A stretch of DNA of 31,915 nucleotides from an uncultured Clostridiaceae bacterium (GTDB lineage Bacteria > Bacillota > Clostridia > Lachnospirales > Lachnospiraceae). Positions within the stretch are counted from its first letter, which is position 1, and the number at the start of each line of letters is the position of its first letter. The DNA is taken from the NCBI GenBank assembly GCA_947175805.1, contig CAMWOF010000001.1, forward strand, positions 1 to 31,915, in the 5' to 3' direction. This document shows, in pieces, positions 2 through 15,688 of this stretch. The notes under the pieces were generated by a model, which saw only the letters and a program-made list of their open reading frames with translations, searched no databases and was not told the DNA's origin. The translations under genes and the position numbers were made by a program.

Positions 2-3000
2 AATATAGATATCACAAATTCGTCAGTCGAGGTGCCTAAAGGTGTGACTGTGCCGGCATCTAACGGCTTCACCATGGGTGGTACATCGAGAATTGCGAAT
101 ATCATCCTGTTAGAAGGGACATTGGCAGGCGAATATGTGGCGGATACATGCGAGTATACATATTTTTATATGTTGAGTGGCGGAGAGATTTCAAATGCAG
201 GATTTAATGAAATGGCGGTGAAATATTATCCGGTGACGTTAGATTACAATGCGGACGAAATCACAATTACACAATCTAACCTTGGTTCTATGGCACTTCG
301 TCCGGAGCTTGTGTTTGCGGAGAGTAATGAGGTTGCGAGCATTAGCTGTGTGCCGAAAGCAGGCTTCAATCTGGGAGAGGGAACTTACCAGCAGGAGGGG
401 GATGCCACTGCTTCTCAGATGAAGAAAGAGGAAAACGGTCAGACGGCCACATATACTTTCGACATGAAAGAAAAGCCGGTGACAGTGACGATTGCATGTG
501 CGGGTAATAAAATTTCCGTGGGCAAATCTGTGGCCGACCCGGTGGCGATTCTAAGCCACACATATACATCAGAAGAGCCATTGTATGATTTTGCAACGCT
601 GATGATTTACAACGATGGAACAGAGGGTGAATTAGGCTACGCTTTGGCTGACGGTCAGGTTTTGCCGGCAGGGCTTTCACTGACAGATGATGGGAAGCTT
701 ATCGGCACCCCGACAACAGTGAACGAAGCAGGTACCCAGGTAACCTTTGTGGTGACAGGCAGGAATGGCACGACAGCGGAGCTAATACTGAATATTATCG
801 TGTCTGCCGATGGGAATGCGTCTCAGACCAATCAGGACGGACGTATTCTTGTAGATGATGAAGCAAAGACCATCAATTGTCTGGGCAGCTCGGTGCTGAT
901 TGAGGCATGCGATGCAGGTACGGCAATCTACATAGATGAAGACAGGGATGGTGTGGCAGATTATGCGGAGCCGGCGGCAAAGGGCGATTTTTCCACATAT
1001 ACGCTTTACGGCTTAAAAGATTATGACAGCCAAAGACCGCTGCAGATTATCATGAAGGGCGGTGCGTTGGATTACCTTTATGGCGCATATAACGGCGATG
1101 TTACCGCAGAGCAGGAAACAGACAATATCTATATCTCTGTTCAGGGCGGCAGCGTGAAAATCTTGAATGGCGCTTATACTGCAGAGATTGCAGGGGGCAT
1201 TCGCATAGAGAGGACGGCTGCCGGTACGGTGAACAGCCTGAACACATGTGACAGCCGTACGACGTATCAATACATCTGGTTGGATCAGGCTGGCACTGTG
1301 ACAGTGACAGGCGACTATACGTTGACGAAGGATGTGACGGTAACCAACTTTACTATTGCTGCCGGCACTTATCAAAAGAATCATAGTGTTACAGTCAATC
1401 CTGATGTGACGCTGAACGTAACAGGGAATATTTATCAGTATGCTTATACGAATCTGTACAACAAGGGTACAGTCAGTACAAAAACATATACAAACAACTC
1501 TAGTACTTCTGCGCATTTTGTGACAGAGGGCGCAAAGCTGCTGCCAGAGGATAATACTTTCAATTATATTTATTATCCGATGACGATATCTTGTGAGGAT
1601 TTGCCGAAAAATGCGAAAGCGCCGTGGTTTGATAATAGTGTGAAGACCTATGAGGATGTGGTATATGGTTCTCCGTCGGCATCTACATATTTTAATTATG
1701 CACTGGTAGCGGGTTATACAGCTTATTATAGACTGAATGACGGCCAGGAAACAGTATTAGGGACAATTTCCGTGGGAGCGGGAACCAATAATAAATATGT
1801 TTACAGTGAACGAAAGCCAACGAATATCCATGTATTCTATGTGCCGAATGAGATTGCGGCAAAGGTAAAGTTTAGTGTTCCAACAGCAGAGGTTAACATG
1901 AAATACGATGCGGAAAATCCGCTGTATGATTGTGCTGCATCCATTGAGATTAGCAATGATACTGATTCTGAGCATGGCGGAAAGATGCTGTATCAGGTCA
2001 AGAAGGGCAGCAGCCTTCCTGCAGGACTTCGCCTGGAGGATGGCAAAATTGTCGGAACGCCGTCTGCAGCAACGAACGGAGCTGTGCCGGTAACACTGCT
2101 GATTACAGGTAGAAACGGCATGGTGACAGAGGCGTCATTGGAAGTTTCGGTGGTAGAAGAAGCAGAGCCTGTGCGGGATATCAATGAAATGATTTCACTA
2201 AGCGGCAGTATGCTGGATTTAAAGGGTACATCTGTTGTTATTTATGCGGATGCATCCAGCAGCAGTTATTGTAATATTTATCTGGATGAGAATCATGATG
2301 GTATTGCAGATAACGACTTGCCTTTTAAGGTAAATGGTTCTGCAAAGCTGTCATTGTCAAATGTAACGATATATGGCTGGCAGAATACAAGTGCGGCTTA
2401 TGATGGGGATATTACGATTTATGCTTACGGAGGCACCATCGGTTCTGTTTACGGCGTATATAGCAGTTCCAGTAGCCAAATTGCAGAGGTTAACGGTAAG
2501 GTGTCTCTGTATATGCAGGGCACTAGGGTAAATACCTGTACGGCAGCAGGCTACCGGGCGTCTGCAAAGGAGTTGAATTTATACTGTACCGCAGGGACTC
2601 TGTATTATAATGTCTATGGGGCGTATGAGCCGGCATCGGTGGAGACCGTACACTTTGCCTTCACAAAGGATGCCCTATTTTACGGCGGCTCCAATAGCAG
2701 ATATTATATGGCGGTTACCCAGGGTGGTACTGTGACAGGGAATGTATATGCACAGGTAGGAGGCGCTGGCACGAGCTACGGCTTTGGCAATAGTTATGGC
2801 AGATTCTATGGCGTGTATAATACCGAGGTTTCCGGCAGTGTGGATTACAGTATTCAAGGAAATTGGAGACCGCAATATGAAAACCATTTTGCAAGATTTG
2901 CTACCATTACAGGTGATATGGATATAGATTGGCAGAATGGATATGTTACTACGGGTAACAGCACGACTACGTACAGAGAGTTTGCTTATGATTCTGTGAT

Positions 3001-6000
3001 AAGGAATTTAACCGTGAATGTGGCTGCAGATGCTGTGATGTCTTCGTCCAGCGCAATGTATCCGTATTATAGCGGTAGGATTCAGAATGTATACATGTAT
3101 GTGCCGGATGCGCTGTCATCTGTGGTATCAACAGCGCTGTTAACTCCAAACACCTCAGAATTTCCGGTAAAGTGCGGATATCTGTATAATAAGGGAGCTG
3201 TCTGGGTATCCGGTGAGTATACGTTGACAGAGGATTTGAATACAACAACTCTCATGATACATAGCAACGGTAAACTCATTATCCCGGAGAATGTGGCATT
3301 GACGACTTCCTCAAATGTTAACTGCTATGGCATCATTGAGAATGAAGGCACGCTTACTACAAATACAACCAATGTTTACCCTCCTAATGTTACCGTATAT
3401 GCAGGTGCATTGGTTGCAAATGAGGGAACCTGGACGTCTGAATGTCCGGTTAACTGTTATGAGGCAATTGAGAACGAGGGCATATGGAATGCAAAGAACA
3501 CTGTGCAGTTAAATGCGAATGCGACAATTAGTAACAGTGGGCAATGGAATGCGGAGAAACAGGTGACTTTGTACCAGGGTGCGGCTATCTCAAATAAGAA
3601 TCTCTGGAATGTCAAAACAGGCAGCATCGTGTACCTGAATGCAGCAGCAGCCAAGGTAACAAATGAAGGAGAGTGGAATACAGACGGTCGGGTTATCCTG
3701 AATTATGCAGATGACGTGGTTGAGAACAGCGGTACTTGGAATATGAACCATGGTGTCTATATCAATAAAGGAAAGGTGGAGAATTCCGGCACCTTTAACG
3801 GTAAATACTATTCTGCATCCTTTGATGGGTGTGTATATGTTTGTAACGGAGGTACGGCTGTCAATACCGGAAACTGGATGGGTAATGCCTATATCGATTT
3901 GACTAGCGGTACTATGGATAATGCCGGTTCACTGGAGATAAATCTGCGTTCGACAACAGATACTACGAATTATAATCTGCACTTGAATAATGCAACCTGC
4001 ATGCTCATCAACCGTGAGGACGCTGTTTTAAAGCTGATGGCAAGAGTATATAACTATAGCGGAAAGATTGTAAACTATGGCACGGTGAAACAAACGTACC
4101 AGAGCACTAACACCAGTTACATGAATCTTGGCAATGTTTATGCGGCGAAGCCGGTAACGCTGTCCGGTGACATTGCAAACTATACAGGTACGAATTTCTA
4201 CTATCCTGCAGTTGTGGATTATCCAGAGACTGCGGTAAGCGGTGCAACACTGGCTACCACATATAGCAGCGGTGTAGAGGGGGATGAGAACCAGTACCTG
4301 AAAGCAAGGGAGAAGTTTACTGTCACGCTGGCAGGTTACGTCGGCGATTATACGAAGGCGGATGTACAGTCCGTTGTCTACGGCTCTGCAGAAGCTGAGG
4401 CGACGGGAACAAACACGGAGAATCAGTGGCAGGGCACCATGCCGCAGGAGAGCATCGCGGTGAAGGTGAACATCGTAAAGAATGATGCGTCACAGATTGA
4501 GATTACGCCGGGCGAGGTGACAATTGAAAAGCTGACGGTGAACCAGAGAAATAATTCCATTTACGATTTGAAAAATTTGGTTGTCACAAATGACGATGGA
4601 ACAGAGGGGCAGGTATCTTATGCAGTCAGCAGTACGAAGCCGCTTCCAGAGGGCTTAACCTTAAGTAATGGTGTGATTTCCGGTACGCCGAAGTATGCCA
4701 GCAGTGAGCCATATACGGCGGAGATTATTGTCACCGGAAAGAACCTGACAACGGCGGTTCTGAAGTTGACCTTTACACAGATAGAAAAGGCGGTGCCGAG
4801 CCTTACTGTACCGACAGGACTTTGGGGCTATACGAACTATAAGCTGTCACAGGTATACGGTATGCCGAAGCCGAGCACGGGTACTTATAGCTGGCCGGAT
4901 GCTACCTTGGATATTACGGAGAAATGCATTGCGGGCGAGAAGTTTGACCTTTACTTTACACCGGTGGATACGGATAATTACGATTGGTCTAAAGTGAATA
5001 TCTCTGCCGGCACGTGGAATGAGGAAGAGAAAAGGGTAGAGTGTAAGGTTGCTATAACCATGTATACGATTGCCCCGAGCTATACCACGCCAACGGATAT
5101 TACGGCGGTGTACGGGCAGACGTTAGAAGATGTGAAGCTGCCGTCTGATGAAAATGGCGCATTTGTATGGAGGACGCCGTCAACATCGGTGGGAAATGTT
5201 GGAAACAAGAGCTTTTACGCAAGCTATGTACCGACAGATACGAAACGGTACTCTACTGTCAATCTATACATTACGGTGACGGTACAGCCAAAAGAAGTAA
5301 CGGCAAAGATTCCGGAGGGGCTGAAGACATATAAAGACAATACCATCGGACAGGTGGAGCTGCCGAAGGCAGAGGGCGGTACTTATAAGTGGCTGACTGC
5401 AGCCTCCACTGTGGTAAAGGAGAATACCAAATATAAAGCGGTATTTATTCCTGACGAAAACACAAATTATAAATGGATTGTCAGTGATGGGCTGACTTAC
5501 AGCGAAGCTTACAAGGGTTACGTATTTGAGGTCGAGATTACGGTTGTCTATCATGAGGAGGGCAAGCATACCTATGAGACGAAGTATGATGGCACGTATC
5601 ACTGGAAGGAGTGTATCTGCGGAGATATTACGGATAAGGCGAAGCATACGCTGGGTGATTTGAAGATTAATGGTGATACCCATATTGCTACTTGTACCTT
5701 TGACGGCTGTGAGTATCAGGAAGAGAACTCCCACAGCTATGAGAAGAAGGTGGGAACGACAGAGCATTGGTATGAGTGTGCATGCCATGATGTCATCAAT
5801 AGAGCGACACATTATTATTCGAGGACTGTGTATAACGAGACAGAGCATTGGAGGGAGTGCAGCTGTGGCGCACAAACAGATAAGACAGCGCATGCCTACA
5901 ATACAAACAAGTCTGACAGCAGTTCCCACTGGAAACAGTGTAGCTGTGGCGCTAAGACAGATGTAGAAACACATAAATTTGAAACATTAAAGTATGATGG

Positions 6001-9000
6001 GCAGAATCATTGGTATGAGTGCGCATGTGGTGTAAAGAATAACGTTGCGGCACATACATACGGAAAATGGCTGTGTGACGAGGAGGAGGATAACCATTAC
6101 GCATTATGTGACTGTGGAGCGAAAATAACGGCAGAACACAAGTATAGCGACTGCGTGTCCACTGGAAAGAGCCAGCACAAGGAGGTCTGTGAGGACTGTG
6201 GCAGAGAGATTATAACAGACCATACCTGGGATGCAGGTGTCGTGACAGTTTCGCCGACAGAAGTAAAGACCGGCTTGAAGATATATACTTGTATAGCCTG
6301 TGGCGAGAAGAAAGAGGAGGTGCTGCCGAAAAATGAGCCTCCGCACCCGAATAATGAGCATATTAGGGCTTATGATGAAAACGAGCATTGGGAGGTCTGC
6401 GATGACGGGGACGGATATGAATTTGTAGAGACGAGAGAGTCCCATACCTTTACCGATTGGCAGATTGATGACAAGACGGGTATGCATTGGAAAGAGTGTA
6501 CAGTCTGCGGATACAAGAAGCAGCTAGGCACCCATACATGGAAGACCGTGTATAACGCAGAGAACCATTGGCAGGAGTGTGGCGTCTGTGGTTTGAAGAA
6601 GTCATCTGGAACACATTCCTATGTAAAACGCACAGACGAGGTCAACCACTGGCAGGAGTGTAGCTGTGGCAGGAGAATAGAGATAGAGCAGCATTCTTAT
6701 CGCTCCTATTCTTTCGATGCAAATGGTCATTGGGATGAATGTTCCTGTGGTAAGCGGGCAAATGAGGCCGCACACAGCTATGGCAAATGGCAGCCGACAG
6801 AAGATGGCAGCAAGCATTATCATGAGTGGGTATGCGAGTACAAAGAGGAGGCTGAACATTCTGCAGATTATGTTTGGACGTCTGACGGAGCGGAGAATCA
6901 CATCGGCAAATGTGAGCAATGCGGCGGCAATTCCACGACAGAGAAGCATGTATGGGATGCGGGCAAGGTGACAGTTTCGCCGACTGTATCTGCAGATGGT
7001 GTAAGAACCTACACATGTACGAAGTGTAAGGCGACGAAGACTGAGAAAATCGATAAGCTTGCGGCAAGCCATACACATTCCTTCACCGATTGGACATCTG
7101 ATGCTTCTGAGCATTGGAAAGTGTGCAATTGTGGTGATGAAGCGGACAGAGCAGCGCATAGATGGAATGCGGGAACTGTGACCCAGGAGCCGACAGAGAC
7201 GGAAACAGGCATTAAGACCTATCGGTGTACTGTCTGCGGCCGGGAGAAAACAGAGGAGCTTGCGAAGCTGCCGCATACGCACAAATATAGTGAGGAATAT
7301 ACCTATAATGAGACGTATCACTGGAAAGCGTGCAGTTGTGGTGCGGTGACGGCAAGGGCGGCGCATCAATGGGATAAGGGAACTGTTTTGAAGCCTGCAA
7401 CCATAGAGGAGACGGGTGTTATGCAGTACCAGTGTACCATCTGCGGAGCAGTGAAGCAGACCGTACTGCCAAAACTCACAGAGGCACACGAGCACAGCTT
7501 TGGTGATTGGATTGCATCAGACGATATTAACCATACACGTACCTGCAGCTGCGGCAATCAGGAGACAAGGGCGCACAGCTTTGGCTACTGGACAAAGGAT
7601 GACGCTGAGAATCATAAGAAGACATGTAGGGTTTGCGGTCATGCAATATATGAGGCGCATGCATGGGATGCCGGAAAAGTAACGAAAGAGGCAGACGAGG
7701 ATGAGCTGGGTGTGATTACCTATACATGTAGGACCTGCGGCGAGACGAAGGAGAAGACTTATACTTTAGGAGATCATATTCATTCTTATGGTGATGCCCA
7801 GATGAGGGATGAACAAAAACATATGAAGATATGCCAGGATGCTACCTGCGGACATATGCTTTTGGAGAATCATATATGGGATGCCGGAAAAGTAACGGCA
7901 GCGGCAACGGAAACAAAGGCGGGTACTATCACATATACCTGTGAGGAATGTGGTTATAAGAAGACGGAGGCGATAGAAAAGCATGCCCATGAATGTGATG
8001 CATGGGAGGCAGCAGAAGACGGCGTTCATCACATCGGCACATGTATTTACGGTGATCAGGATATGACAGAAGAGCATACATGGAATGATGGTGTGATAAC
8101 AGTTCCGGCAACGGAGGCAGCAGTCGGCGCTAAATTATACACATGTACGAAGTGTGGGGCAGAAAAGACAGAGGTGATTCCAAAGCATGAGCATGCCTAT
8201 GGAGACTGGGTGGCTGATGGAGAAAAGAACCATAAAAAGCTCTGTGAGTGTGGCGAGACGGTAACTGCACCGCATGATTGGGATGCAGGCTATATCACAA
8301 AACCGGCGACAACTACGGAAGAAGGAGAGATTACTTATACCTGTGAGGACTGTGGCGGCACAAAGGTGTCACCTCTGGCGAAGGTTCCGGAAAACCATAA
8401 GCATAAAAATGTATGGGTAAAGAAGAATGCAGATATTCATGTGGAGATGTGTAATGGCTGCGGTCTGCCGACAGGTCAGCAGGCACCGCATGATTGGGAT
8501 GCAGGTGAGGTGACAGTTGAGCCGACGGAGGCCACAGAGGGTGTCAGAACCTACCATTGTACGGTGTGTGATGCCAAGAAGAAAGAAACCATTGCCAAGC
8601 TGGGGCATTCCTATGGTGAGTGGATAAAGAACGATCAGGATACCCATAAAAAGGTCTGCGCTTGTGGAGATGTGGTGACAGAGGCACACAGTTGGAATGC
8701 AGGCGAGGTAACCACTGCGGCAACAGCCCAGGCAGAGGGTGTTAAGACCTATACCTGTACAGTCTGCGGGGAGACAAAGACGGAGGCGATTGCTAAGCTG
8801 CCGCCAGAAACTCCAGAAGAACCAGAACCGAAGGAGGTAGGTGCAGAGTTTACTGATGAGCAGAGCAAGGCGAAGTTTACTGTGGTGGACCCGGCAAGCA
8901 TTGACAGCGAAGATAAGGATACCTCACCGGCAGTTATCTATACCGGTTCTGTGGATGCGAATGCACAGGAGATTATCATACCGGATACCATCACGGTAGA

Positions 9001-9730
9001 CGGCGTGGAATACAGAGTGGTATCCATTGCAGACGGTGCCTTTAAGAATAAGAAGAAGCTCAAAAAGATAACGATTGGCAACTGCACATGGACAATTGGC
9101 AACAGTGCCTTTGAGGGCTGTACATCACTTAAGACAGTCACCTTTAAGAAGACTTCAAGGGTAAAGACAATTGGAAAGAAGGCATTTTACAAGTGTACCG
9201 CCCTGACAAAGATAACCATTCCGAAGTCAGTGGTGACAATTAAGGAAAGCGCCTTTGACGGCTGTAAGAAGTTGGCAACGGTGACCTTCCAGTCCGGTTC
9301 TAAGCTAAAGACGCTGGGTAAAAAGGTATTTAACAACTGTGTTGCTCTGAAGAAGATTGCGATACCAAAGAATGTGACTACCATTGCAAGCAGCACATTC
9401 AGCGGCTGTAAGAAGCTGGCAACGGTGACCTTCCAGTCTGGCTCTAAGCTTAAGAAGATTGACACAAAAGCATTTAACGGCTGTGTGGTATTAAAGAAGA
9501 TTACGATACCGAAGAATGTGACTACCATTGGAAGCAGTGCTTTTAACAAGTGTAAAAAGCTGGGTACAATTACTATTAAGTCTACAAAGCTCAAGAAGGT
9601 AGGAAAGAATGCGTTCAAGGGAATCAAGAGCACAGCAACGATTAAGGTGCCTTCCAAGAAACTGGCAGCTTACAAGAAGCTTTTGAAGAATAAGGGCCAG
9701 GGTAAGAAGGTAAAAATTAAAAAGATTTAA
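2..9730 (+). CDS. Giant modular cell-surface protein, 5' truncated by window edge (Ig-like He_PIG-type domains, beta-solenoid regions, His/Cys repeat array, C-terminal BspA/LRR_5 repeats)
   Basis: The frame is open from position 2 (NIDITNSSVEVPK...), so the GTG at 32 is probably not the true start, and no signal peptide is visible. There are three LP[AE]GL.L..G...GTP Ig-like motifs (nt 662, 2015, 4643), 34 Cys-centred repeats and IP.SV.TI...AF..C..L LRR units. Confidence 0.92.
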   Translation, partial: NIDITNSSVEVPKGVTVPASNGFTMGGTSRIANIILLEGTLAGEYVADTCEYTYFYMLSGGEISNAGFNEMAVKYYPVTLDYNADEITITQSNLGSMALRPELVFAESNEVASISCVPKAGFNLGEGTYQQEGDATASQMKKEENGQTATYTFDMKEKPVTVTIACAGNKISVGKSVADPVAILSHTYTSEEPLYDFATLMIYNDGTEGELGYALADGQVLPAGLSLTDDGKLIGTPTTVNEAGTQVTFVVTGRNGTTAELILNIIVSADGNASQTNQDGRILVDDEAKTINCLGSSVLIEACDAGTAIYIDEDRDGVADYAEPAAKGDFSTYTLYGLKDYDSQRPLQIIMKGGALDYLYGAYNGDVTAEQETDNIYISVQGGSVKILNGAYTAEIAGGIRIERTAAGTVNSLNTCDSRTTYQYIWLDQAGTVTVTGDYTLTKDVTVTNFTIAAGTYQKNHSVTVNPDVTLNVTGNIYQYAYTNLYNKGTVSTKTYTNNSSTSAHFVTEGAKLLPEDNTFNYIYYPMTISCEDLPKNAKAPWFDNSVKTYEDVVYGSPSASTYFNYALVAGYTAYYRLNDGQETVLGTISVGAGTNNKYVYSERKPTNIHVFYVPNEIAAKVKFSVPTAEVNMKYDAENPLYDCAASIEISNDTDSEHGGKMLYQVKKGSSLPAGLRLEDGKIVGTPSAATNGAVPVTLLITGRNGMVTEASLEVSVVEEAEPVRDINEMISLSGSMLDLKGTSVVIYADASSSSYCNIYLDENHDGIADNDLPFKVNGSAKLSLSNVTIYGWQNTSAAYDGDITIYAYGGTIGSVYGVYSSSSSQIAEVNGKVSLYMQGTRVNTCTAAGYRASAKELNLYCTAGTLYYNVYGAYEPASVETVHFAFTKDALFYGGSNSRYYMAVTQGGTVTGNVYAQVGGAGTSYGFGNSYGRFYGVYNTEVSGSVDYSIQGNWRPQYENHFARFATITGDMDIDWQNGYVTTGNSTTTYREFAYDSVIRNLTVNVAADAVMSSSSAMYPYYSGRIQNVYMYVPDALSSVVSTALLTPNTSEFPVKCGYLYNKGAVWVSGEYTLTEDLNTTTLMIHSNGKLIIPENVALTTSSNVNCYGIIENEGTLTTNTTNVYPPNVTVYAGALVANEGTWTSECPVNCYEAIENEGIWNAKNTVQLNANATISNSGQWNAEKQVTLYQGAAISNKNLWNVKTGSIVYLNAAAAKVTNEGEWNTDGRVILNYADDVVENSGTWNMNHGVYINKGKVENSGTFNGKYYSASFDGCVYVCNGGTAVNTGNWMGNAYIDLTSGTMDNAGSLEINLRSTTDTTNYNLHLNNATCMLINREDAVLKLMARVYNYSGKIVNYGTVKQTYQSTNTSYMNLGNVYAAKPVTLSGDIANYTGTNFYYPAVVDYPETAVSGATLATTYSSGVEGDENQYLKAREKFTVTLAGYVGDYTKADVQSVVYGSAEAEATGTNTENQWQGTMPQESIAVKVNIVKNDASQIEITPGEVTIEKLTVNQRNNSIYDLKNLVVTNDDGTEGQVSYAVSSTKPLPEGLTLSNGVISGTPKYASSEPYTAEIIVTGKNLTTAVLKLTFTQIEKAVPSLTVPTGLWGYTNYKLSQVYGMPKPSTGTYSWPDATLDITEKCIAGEKFDLYFTPVDTDNYDWSKVNISAGTWNEEEKRVECKVAITMYTIAPSYTTPTDITAVYGQTLEDVKLPSDENGAFVWRTPSTSVGNVGNKSFYASYVPTDTKRYSTVNLYITVTVQPKEVTAKIPEGLKTYKDNTIGQVELPKAEGGTYKWLTAASTVVKENTKYKAVFIPDENTNYKWIVSDGLTYSEAYKGYVFEVEITVVYHEEGKHTYETKYDGTYHWKECICGDITDKAKHTLGDLKINGDTHIATCTFDGCEYQEENSHSYEKKVGTTEHWYECACHDVINRATHYYSRTVYNETEHWRECSCGAQTDKTAHAYNTNKSDSSSHWKQCSCGAKTDVETHKFETLKYDGQNHWYECACGVKNNVAAHTYGKWLCDEEEDNHYALCDCGAKITAEHKYSDCVSTGKSQHKEVCEDCGREIITDHTWDAGVVTVSPTEVKTGLKIYTCIACGEKKEEVLPKNEPPHPNNEHIRAYDENEHWEVCDDGDGYEFVETRESHTFTDWQIDDKTGMHWKECTVCGYKKQLGTHTWKTVYNAENHWQECGVCGLKKSSGTHSYVKRTDEVNHWQECSCGRRIEIEQHSYRSYSFDANGHWDECSCGKRANEAAHSYGKWQPTEDGSKHYHEWVCEYKEEAEHSADYVWTSDGAENHIGKCEQCGGNSTTEKHVWDAGKVTVSPTVSADGVRTYTCTKCKATKTEKIDKLAASHTHSFTDWTSDASEHWKVCNCGDEADRAAHRWNAGTVTQEPTETETGIKTYRCTVCGREKTEELAKLPHTHKYSEEYTYNETYHWKACSCGAVTARAAHQWDKGTVLKPATIEETGVMQYQCTICGAVKQTVLPKLTEAHEHSFGDWIASDDINHTRTCSCGNQETRAHSFGYWTKDDAENHKKTCRVCGHAIYEAHAWDAGKVTKEADEDELGVITYTCRTCGETKEKTYTLGDHIHSYGDAQMRDEQKHMKICQDATCGHMLLENHIWDAGKVTAAATETKAGTITYTCEECGYKKTEAIEKHAHECDAWEAAEDGVHHIGTCIYGDQDMTEEHTWNDGVITVPATEAAVGAKLYTCTKCGAEKTEVIPKHEHAYGDWVADGEKNHKKLCECGETVTAPHDWDAGYITKPATTTEEGEITYTCEDCGGTKVSPLAKVPENHKHKNVWVKKNADIHVEMCNGCGLPTGQQAPHDWDAGEVTVEPTEATEGVRTYHCTVCDAKKKETIAKLGHSYGEWIKNDQDTHKKVCACGDVVTEAHSWNAGEVTTAATAQAEGVKTYTCTVCGETKTEAIAKLPPETPEEPEPKEVGAEFTDEQSKAKFTVVDPASIDSEDKDTSPAVIYTGSVDANAQEIIIPDTITVDGVEYRVVSIADGAFKNKKKLKKITIGNCTWTIGNSAFEGCTSLKTVTFKKTSRVKTIGKKAFYKCTALTKITIPKSVVTIKESAFDGCKKLATVTFQSGSKLKTLGKKVFNNCVALKKIAIPKNVTTIASSTFSGCKKLATVTFQSGSKLKKIDTKAFNGCVVLKKITIPKNVTTIGSSAFNKCKKLGTITIKSTKLKKVGKNAFKGIKSTATIKVPSKKLAAYKKLLKNKGQGKKVKIKKI
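5552..8800 (+). repeat. Intragenic array of 34 His/Cys modules (24 type A, 10 type B)
   Basis: Manual count from the translation. Type A is H-x~10-H-[WYK]-x2-C-x1-4-C-G; type B is H-x-W-[DN]-x-G-x-[VI]...G-x3-Y-x-C-x2-C-G. Confidence 0.9.
8972..9727 (+). repeat. BspA-type leucine-rich repeat (LRR_5) region with Lys-rich tail
   Basis: Repeats such as KITIPKSVVTIKESAFDGCKKLATVTF; the protein ends KKLLKNKGQGKKVKIKKI. Confidence 0.9.
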
Positions 9731-14416: not shown

Positions 14417-15688
14417 CTATGCATAACCGTTAAACAAAAGACCGCTGTACATGGATGGCATATAAGGATTCGGTAGTGATTTTGCGGTATTCGGGTAGGT
14501 CACAATTACCTTATCCACATAAGCCAGAGGGTCAAGATTCAGCGCATCCGTTGTCTTGATGATATCACTCTTAAAGTCTGAAATATCATCAAACAGGGAT
14601 TGGAACTCCCCGTTTTTGGTGCTCTGGGTAAGCAGCGCCTCCTCTGTCTCTAAATATCCCTTTGCGTTGACTGCAAGACCGGAGGCCTCTAATACATTGG
14701 CGTGCTTTCTTGTAATCTGGGAGATATCTGTCAAAAGCTTCCTTGCGCTGCGTTGGTTATCCAGATTATTAACGGCAAGACCGACCAAATGATTATAGGA
14801 ATCAACGAAGTCGTGTATCTTGTTGATAATCTCTCCTGTGTCAGGCTGCATCTGCAGGGAAACCTCCTCCTCGGAAGCGGACAGTAAATCAATCTCAATG
14901 GCATTGTTGATGGAAATACTGTTGGTCGCTGAGGTATGGGTCTCATCGTTAATGGTAAAGACAGAATTCTCCGGCTGTCTCGACACATGATTTAGTCCAA
15001 AGTAATTAATGAGAGGCTGGTTTGGGTTATCCTCCTCAAAAGCAAATTGCAGCCCATCCTCTACGGAACCCTTACCGGTAAACTGTGATTCTAATATCAG
15101 TGCACTTTCATTGCCCTTGACATCAACTCTGGCACTGATGCCGGTATGGTTCTGGTTAATAGCATCAGCAAGGCTATGCTGTGCATCAATGTTAGTTGAA
15201 GAGGCATTGAGCTTTAAGGAGAACAGGTAGTCACTCTTCGAGGTAATCAAATGTATATCATAGGAGCCGTTAGCAAGCCCCTTGCTTTGTGATTTTACAT
15301 ACTGTCCCGAATTAATCTGGCTGTCCGCCAACCGACTTATGCGCAGGCTTAATTGCTCCGGCACATTGGAATAATTGTCTGTCCGCAGCCGCACATCCAG
15401 AATATCCTCGTTTGAGGATTCAAAAATCTTCTTATTAAAAACAGTGTCCACATCATCGCTCAGGAAATTGGAAATATTTTTCAGATTAATAGCAGCGTCC
15501 TTGATACTCAAAGCATAATCCTGCGTTTCCTGCGACATACTGAACTTATAAAGAGGGGACTGCTTGTTGTGGCTGACCATGCTCTTATATATGTTCTTTA
15601 ATTCGTTGGATTTATGCGTATCGTACTTCGTATTTGTCTTTGGCAAATACGTCATGCTATAATGGTTATAAACATTATAATCAATCAT
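14417..15688 (-). CDS. Flagellar filament cap (FliD)-like protein
   Basis: FliD-like segments (ISRLADSQIN, LADAINQNHTGISARV, SVFTINDETHTSATNSI, IHDFVDSYNHLV) and C-terminal YSGLLFNGYA; strong RBS ggaaggagggg. Confidence 0.7.
   Translation of the reverse strand: MIDYNVYNHYSMTYLPKTNTKYDTHKSNELKNIYKSMVSHNKQSPLYKFSMSQETQDYALSIKDAAINLKNISNFLSDDVDTVFNKKIFESSNEDILDVRLRTDNYSNVPEQLSLRISRLADSQINSGQYVKSQSKGLANGSYDIHLITSKSDYLFSLKLNASSTNIDAQHSLADAINQNHTGISARVDVKGNESALILESQFTGKGSVEDGLQFAFEEDNPNQPLINYFGLNHVSRQPENSVFTINDETHTSATNSISINNAIEIDLLSASEEEVSLQMQPDTGEIINKIHDFVDSYNHLVGLAVNNLDNQRSARKLLTDISQITRKHANVLEASGLAVNAKGYLETEEALLTQSTKNGEFQSLFDDISDFKSDIIKTTDALNLDPLAYVDKVIVTYPNTAKSLPNPYMPSMYSGLLFNGYA

Follow-up and report, generated by a model that had tools for sequence, protein, structure and literature searches.

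We analyzed a 31,915-nucleotide stretch of DNA (here referred to as the window) from an uncultured Clostridiaceae bacterium (assembly GCA_947175805.1, contig CAMWOF010000001.1). The window opens at contig position 1 and begins with a giant gene whose product contains a long chain of small modules rich in His and Cys. The host DNA is a metagenome-assembled genome (MAG) of 2.5 Mb in 376 contigs and is 84% complete. The gene, at positions 2..9730 of the plus strand, is a single open frame of 3,242 amino acids (aa), truncated at its 5' end by the contig end. Its aa 1841-2923 (nucleotides [nt] 5522-8770), a segment of about 1,080 aa (1,083), consist of 34 modules of two types, A and B, and the evidence presented below indicates that this array is probably a zinc-clasped rod or spacer with one structural metal site at each junction. 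The gene and its parts are as follows.

2..9730, plus strand: giant secreted-protein gene, 5'-truncated; 3,242 aa present, orthologues 3,951-4,320 aa with an N-terminal signal peptide
2..5521, plus strand: N-terminal region, aa 1-1840; unassigned beta-rich repeats and three He_PIG immunoglobulin (Ig)-like domains (Pfam PF05345)
5522..7030, plus strand: His/Cys modules 1-17, aa 1841-2343, order A8-B-A7-B (hand segmentation; AlphaFold2 [AF2] model of aa 1925-2015)
7031..8770, plus strand: His/Cys modules 18-34, aa 2344-2923, order (AB)2-AAB-(AB)5 (hand segmentation; AF2 model of aa 2356-2530; homology to the ZBD domains of an immunoglobulin A [IgA] protease)
8771..9022, plus strand: Pro/Glu-rich linker and short unassigned segment between the putative rod and the leucine-rich repeat (LRR) domain, aa 2924-3007 (translation)
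9023..9634, plus strand: BspA-type LRR domain, aa 3008-3211 (PF13306 LRR_5, E value of 1.2e-56; PF13855 LRR_8)
9635..9727, plus strand: Lys-rich C-terminal tail, aa 3212-3242 (translation; conserved in four orthologues)

Among the He_PIG domains, the best-matched stretch is aa 1529-1584 (PF05345, E value of 3.8e-11). The C-terminal domain passes the PF13306 LRR_5 cut-off of 27.7 bits with a score of 190.5 bits over aa 3008-3139, which identifies the host protein as a BspA-type LRR surface protein. Four orthologues, 53 to 59% identical to it across the His/Cys region, share the BspA-type LRR end and the Lys-rich tail. Since these orthologues start with a Sec signal peptide, the protein appears to be secreted; the orthologue signal peptide begins MRHKKR. 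About 700 to 1,000 N-terminal residues carried by the orthologues are absent from the present copy through the contig end.

The module array

Hand segmentation of aa 1841-2923 gave 34 modules in the order A8-B-A7-B-(AB)2-AAB-(AB)5, reproducing the order that had been proposed in the first-pass annotation, a reading of this DNA made without database searches. Type A follows the pattern H1-x~11-H2-W-x-E-C-x(1,2)-C-G, and type B the pattern H-x-W-[DN]-x-G-x-V-T-x2-[PA]-T-x4-G-x3-Y-x-C-x2-C-G; we refer to the closely spaced Cys pair near the end of each pattern as the knuckle. The module lengths first given required revision. A length of about 27 aa applies to type A only where one A follows another (the full range is 25 to 39 aa), and type B modules are 34 to 36 aa long, not about 40 aa. 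Knuckles are present in 29 of the 34 modules (CxC in 13 and CxxC in 16), compared with a mean of 7.1 and a maximum of 15 in 2,000 shuffles of the array's own residues. The next residue, originally described as Gly, is Gly in 26 of the 29 but His, Lys, or Asp in the remainder. As had been noted, no knuckle takes the form CxxCH, a motif with zero occurrences in the whole 3,242-aa protein. Five type-A modules are degenerate: two have C-x4-C, one has Cys plus Asp, and in two an extra His accompanies the one remaining knuckle Cys. The array contains 68 of the protein's 96 Cys, 73 of its 84 His, and 36 of its 57 Trp residues.

Tandem Repeats Finder detected no DNA tandem repeat inside 5522-8770, indicating that the modules are old and diverged and that the array is not an assembly artefact or a recent duplication. 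The LRR units, unlike the His/Cys modules, were duplicated recently; a 144-bp DNA tandem repeat (1.9 copies, 83% matches) lies at 9259-9537 within the LRR domain. An hhalign comparison of the type-A and type-B profiles, both of them very short, gave no alignment, and no Pfam-A or NCBIfam model matches the array segment.

Homology to the Thomasclavelia ramosa IgA protease

When the PDB was searched by sequence, the one significant match was to entry 9qa6, the M64 IgA protease of the gut bacterium Thomasclavelia ramosa. The E value was 4.4e-11 with single-sequence phmmer and 9.1e-33 with a profile, and the profile match falls into two stretches, over the domains ZBD1 and ZBD2. By sequence similarity, the array modules are homologous to these predicted zinc-binding domains, which are named ZBD1 and ZBD2 in one report (PMC12237041) and CTD2 and CTD4 in another (PMC12415215). 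In the former, zinc sites of two His and two Cys, and in one case of three Cys and one His, are predicted at the interfaces between ZBD subdomains, which form three-stranded up-and-down sheets and extend about 110 Å per 129 aa (three subdomains); the protease was kept monodisperse only with a reducing agent (PMC12237041). In the latter, small-angle X-ray scattering showed isolated CTD2 to be a fully extended rod, in agreement with its AlphaFold2 model, and "an uncharacterized periscope domain fold" with structural zinc was proposed (PMC12415215). The module type and the idea of a structural-zinc rod were thus published in 2025 for the T. ramosa protein, and the present locus is a large further member. 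The statement in the first-pass annotation that no functional description was known has been overtaken by these two papers.

The IgA protease and the protein described here have in common their A- and B-type modules, three-stranded up-and-down sheets, sets of His/Cys ligands at the interfaces, an extracellular location, and the lack of a solved relative. By its sequence similarity, its three-stranded subdomains, and its predicted four Cys/His ligands per junction, the array belongs to the ZBD/CTD2-4 type. The arrangement differs, however. In the IgA protease, groups of three and two modules are split by an Ig-like barrel and lie beside an LPXTG-type anchor, whereas the 34 modules of the present protein run uninterrupted between the beta-rich/Ig region and the BspA LRR domain, with no recognizable anchor. 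In addition, every B module of the present array lacks the third Cys, so that its sites would be Cys2His2.

Predicted structure and the probable ligand set of a junction

Prediction of the structure of a few modules had been suggested as a check at the outset. We ran AF2 on two alignments of module windows from this protein and its homologues. The pLDDT (the predicted score of the local distance difference test) was 91.7 for aa 2356-2530 (A-B-A-B-A) and 88.8 for aa 1925-2015 (A-A-A). The predicted template modelling (pTM) scores of the two models were modest (0.50 and 0.65), as is to be expected of a rod. Both models consist of beta structure throughout: DSSP assigns three strands to each module and no helix, and the models are confident across the junctions. 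A fold search of the PDB with these models found no solved structure sharing the fold, in agreement with PMC12237041 and PMC12415215.

In the models, H1 comes before strand 1, strand 2 runs from the H2-W motif to the knuckle, and the following H1 is reached through strand 3. For a sheet of the up-and-down kind, such an order of strands would bring H1 and the knuckle together at one pole of the module. H2, or in type B the residue at position 26, which falls in the strand 1-strand 2 loop, would lie at the opposite pole, next to the H1 that follows. We infer that the site at a junction would consist of the top ligand of module n-1, together with H1 and the two knuckle Cys of module n. The top ligand would be H2 of the HW motif in type A and the Cys or His at position 26 in type B. 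Such a set would account for terminal B modules that have a knuckle and lack Cys at position 26 (Cys26), as well as for the 93% retention of H1 in chain-first modules and the enrichment of a doubled first His at chain starts, both of which are described below. We also considered an intra-module site made up of H2, the module's own knuckle, and the next H1. We rejected it, as H2 and the first Cys sit on a single strand with a separation of four residues, and as terminal B modules keep the knuckle with neither a top ligand nor a following His. The facts that the junction set would account for are explained less well by the intra-module site.

Ligand conservation and compensation

We assessed conservation in modules from other proteins. 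In 451 type-A modules, H1 is conserved in 86%, H2 in 100%, Trp in 98%, the two Cys in 100% and 96%, and Gly in 91%. The corresponding values in 559 type-B modules are 85% for His, 98% for Gly, and 100% and 90% for the two Cys. The His positions, whose variation across homologues the first-pass annotation had named as evidence against bound metal, are therefore largely conserved in both types. Among the type-B modules from other proteins, 43% have Cys at position 26. In the B modules of the present protein the residue there is Glu, Val, Ile, Asp, Ala, or Thr and never Cys or His. In comparison with the four orthologues (52% identity overall), the best-conserved residues are Cys (85%), His (80%), and Trp (77%), and their losses fall mostly at nonligand positions or in modules lacking in three of the orthologues. 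These three have no modules matching approximately aa 2720-2900 of the present protein (nt 8200-8770 compared).

The variable top ligand of type B allows compensation between neighboring modules to be examined. In a set of 264 proteins, we scored how often the first His of a module is doubled (HxH) according to the module that precedes it, with the following results.

HxH after B without Cys or His at position 26: 94% (298/318)
HxH after B with Cys26: 2% (16/718)
HxH after B with His26: 5% (2/37)
HxH after A, which has H2: 1% (6/799)
HxH at chain start, with no preceding module: 21% (odds ratio of 35 versus after A)

Counted per protein, HxH is in the majority in 87 of the 97 proteins with ligand-less B junctions, and a single His is in the majority in all 98 of the 98 proteins with Cys26 junctions. 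The chain ends follow a similar pattern: CxxC is retained in chain-terminal B modules, but Cys26 is never present there (0 versus 94), and H1 is kept in 93% of chain-first modules. Only seven type-A modules are chain terminal, and the comparison of first and last type-A modules did not by itself separate the ligand models. The T. ramosa IgA protease also fits the compensation rule, with HxH at its chain start and with Cys26 followed by a single His.

In the present protein, the ligand sets comprise two His and two Cys where A follows A, three His and two Cys where A follows B, and one His and two Cys for B. An A module after a B module starts with HxH in seven cases and with H-x4-H in one, and there is one exception. 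This exception lies at aa 2852 (approximately nt 8555), where B module 32 has a His right before the knuckle and an Asp replacing the Gly after it. The first module of the array has an extra His (H-x4-H), and modules lacking one knuckle Cys carry an additional His or Asp. Because Cys and His interchange and the ligand may come from either neighbor, these data point to a four-coordinate metal site rather than a disulfide.

The possibility that the modules are metal free, with intramodule CxC or CxxC disulfides and with the His residues serving in packing or another role, should be judged against the same data. Extracellular Cys pairs are often disulfides, and CxxC is able to form one. However, where a Cys or a top ligand has been lost, a His makes up for it, and the reverse also occurs, which fits a count of ligands and not disulfides, and both H2 (100%) and H1 (86%) are conserved at a fixed spacing to the knuckle. 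CxC disulfides are strained and rare, and Lachnospiraceae, the family of the host, are a lineage of strict anaerobes. Moreover, the IgA protease shows no disulfides in either its structures or its models. We consider a disulfide-based array improbable. The tetrahedral site of two Cys and two His per module that was originally proposed is instead supported by the homology to the IgA protease ZBDs, by the near-invariant ligand positions, and by ligand compensation.

Abundance and range of the module

A word-indexed search with the array segment retrieved 1,470 proteins, whose architectures include LRR_5, SLH, cohesin/dockerin, Flg_new, Big_2, glycosidases, and peptidases; members of the family also carry LPXTG domains. 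The taxonomic range of the module is taken from the source names of these proteins and of the RpoB relatives described below. We then used a HMMER profile against 1.84 billion representatives of clusters defined at 50% identity, a kind of search that had been recommended for establishing novelty and range. It matched 56,450 clusters at an E value of ≤1e-3, 28,650 at ≤1e-10, and 6,508 at ≤1e-30. These 56,450 protein clusters bear out and extend the earlier observation that B-like repeats occur commonly in gut clostridial proteins. A strict regular expression found up to 85 modules in other proteins versus 21 recognized in the present one; the 34-module array, by this measure of sequence, is long but not exceptional. 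Within the host assembly, the module is present in the giant gene only.

AlphaFold-DB fold clusters that match the model contain uncharacterized Firmicutes surface proteins (LPXTG, SLH, LRR, and Big2). Some of the fold relatives are automatically named "Cytochrome c-552/4 domain-containing" or "Cytochrome c7-like," and these are probably misannotated Cys-rich zinc-clasp repeats. Of the 100 nearest ESM Atlas clusters, 93 have no common Pfam family, and the rest carry scattered zinc-finger, zinc-ribbon, and unrelated Pfam labels on a minority of members; we treat the zinc-finger and zinc-ribbon labels as a lead only. C2H2 fingers, zinc ribbons, and rubredoxin knuckles do share with the modules a beta-hairpin knuckle of the form CxxCG and a ligand count of Cys2His2. 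The B knuckle (G-x-K-x-Y-x-C-x2-C-G; for example, at 7200-7260) resembles the linker and knuckle of eukaryotic C2H2 fingers at a subthreshold level (best E value of 4.6e-4), a likeness that most likely reflects convergence of a zinc knuckle. Assignment to three known classes failed. For a classical C2H2 finger (beta-beta-alpha), there is no Pfam match in aa 1841-2930, no helix in the models, and a different ligand order. Zinc ribbons and rubredoxins have two CxxC knuckles per domain, compared with one knuckle per module here and no fold match in the PDB. A multiheme c-type cytochrome is rejected on the absence of CxxCH from the whole protein.

Genomic context

The RpoB protein encoded further downstream is 84 to 87% identical to MAG proteins with the source names Lachnospiraceae bacterium, Wujia sp., and Clostridium sp., which makes the host an uncultured member of the Lachnospiraceae. 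The neighbors of the giant gene encode an epimerase, a Vut_1 transporter, QueF, a K+ channel, and the products of rplJ, rplL, rpoB, rpoC, and other housekeeping genes. The only sizeable minus-strand gene (14417-15688, 423 aa), which has a weak FliD_C (flagellar cap) match, is flanked by the K+ channel gene and the rplJ-rplL-rpoB-rpoC cluster. No sortase, zinc transport or regulation, heme maturation, or respiratory genes are among the neighboring genes, and the neighborhood thus provides no functional link.

These observations bear on two further functions that had been raised for the array. The first is metal storage or sequestration as the main role, in which a surface reservoir of about 34 Zn (or Fe) ions per molecule would compete with host nutritional immunity. 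There are about 34 candidate sites per chain, and the module family is very abundant in gut anaerobes. Nevertheless, the metal would be fully coordinated by protein at the junctions, and its release would unfold the rod; the modules serve as spacers beside anchors and enzymes in very many architectures; and zinc transport and regulation genes are not among the neighbors. We regard a reservoir as very unlikely to be the main function.

The second is an extracellular electron-transfer chain running through about 34 redox metal centers, possibly with conserved Trp and Tyr as hopping relays. The predicted metal sites are regularly spaced, each beside the 98%-conserved Trp, and some fold relatives bear the cytochrome c-like names mentioned above. 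Yet the protein has no CxxCH heme motif, mononuclear Cys2His2 sites are typically redox-inert zinc sites, and no heme maturation or respiratory genes lie nearby. The estimated spacing of about 23 to 37 Å per module also exceeds the limit for electron tunneling, which is roughly 14 Å. An electron-transfer chain, suggested speculatively in the first-pass annotation, is disfavored to the point of being scarcely credible.

A probable zinc-clasped spacer

Taken together, the homology to the predicted zinc-binding ZBD/CTD2-4 domains, the ligand conservation, and the compensation favor the metal-rigidified spacer that was among the functions first suggested. The array would consist of 34 small three-stranded beta-sheet modules chained end to end, with every junction clasped by one tetrahedral metal site of four protein ligands, most likely holding structural Zn2+. 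With no top ligand in this protein's B modules, the second His would come from the HxH of the next module, making nearly all sites Cys2His2. The chain would then be a thin, stiff rod of about 90 nm, a length that, like the site spacing, was obtained by scaling the 110 Å per 129 aa of the IgA protease domains (PMC12237041) to 1,083 aa. In this secreted protein of an anaerobic gut member of the Lachnospiraceae, it would act as a "periscope"-like spacer, with the large beta-rich/Ig region on its N-terminal side and the BspA-type LRR domain on its C-terminal side. The number of knuckles per orthologue varies from 25 to 35, as would be expected for a length-tunable spacer.

Several points weigh against this interpretation. 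Metal binding by the ZBDs is a prediction in both PMC12237041 and PMC12415215, neither of which reports a metal analysis or an experimental ZBD structure, and the cryo-electron microscopy map of 9qa6 covers residues 32-876 only, with the ZBDs not resolved. Zinc binding is a prediction for every member of the module family. The ligand set and site geometry derive from strand order and covariation alone, and the covariation counts include within-protein repeats and related proteins and are not phylogenetically independent. Nor is the four-ligand rule absolute: a single His is found in 79% of chain-start modules, and in the present array module 33, an A module after B module 32, starts with a single His and has three obvious ligands only. 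Finally, no LPXTG, SLH, or transmembrane anchor is recognizable in the protein or in the four orthologues. The original label of a stalk on a surface adhesin is plausible given the orthologue signal peptide and the BspA-type LRR end, but it presupposes a projection from the cell for which there is no recognizable wall anchor.

An extension of the zinc-clasped spacer is that the rod would also be a mechanical switch. The clasps would hold only as long as zinc is supplied and the thiols are reduced. Exposure to oxygen or host oxidants, or the holding back of zinc by calprotectin, would strip them of metal and leave a floppy chain, so that the LRR head's reach or exposure would change. Zn-Cys sites act as redox switches in Hsp33 and RsrA, each junction here would depend on two thiolates, and the host is an anaerobic member of the Lachnospiraceae. 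The need for a reducing agent to keep the IgA protease monodisperse (PMC12237041) is in line with this idea, as is the speculation that its function "is regulated by zinc" (PMC12415215). On the other hand, Cys2His2 sites usually bind zinc very tightly, and sequence cannot tell a regulated clasp from a purely structural one. A switch would add to the structural role without replacing it, and we consider it unlikely, though compatible with all that was observed.

Comparison with other surface spacers and implications

The zinc-clasped spacer proposed here resembles the periscope proteins and the G5-E rods of SasG and Aap from Gram-positive cocci, which are likewise built of thin single-layer beta-sheet modules joined end to end, serve as surface spacers, and vary in module number. 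There is no sequence or fold relation between those proteins and the His/Cys modules. Canonical periscope proteins have near-identical DNA repeats, whereas the modules of this array are diverged; by the strict definition, which calls for highly similar tandem DNA repeats, the protein falls outside the class, because Tandem Repeats Finder found none in 5522-8770, though module number differs among the orthologues. The use of zinc also differs. In Aap, zinc is bound between molecules via His and acidic ligands, whereas here it is proposed to be bound inside the chain via Cys and His.

Of the components of gut Firmicutes surface proteins that still have no database model, the module is one of the most abundant. 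With 34 consecutive modules, nearly all of them Cys2His2, the present protein is a clean and long test object, and the compensation rule (HxH for a missing top ligand, which terminal modules drop) yields a residue-level prediction of the four ligands at each junction. If the switch were true, collapse of a 90-nm rod would make how far the adhesin or LRR head reaches dependent on host zinc and redox state, for example in the inflamed gut, and, with more than 56,000 clusters, this would be a general principle of environment sensing at gut Firmicutes surfaces. If the zinc-clasped spacer itself is confirmed, the junction would represent a new class of inter-module zinc clasp and would make it possible to annotate correctly tens of thousands of proteins, some of them now described as cytochrome c-like. 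It would also imply a sizeable zinc demand at the cell surface of gut anaerobes, with this array binding about 34 Zn per molecule.

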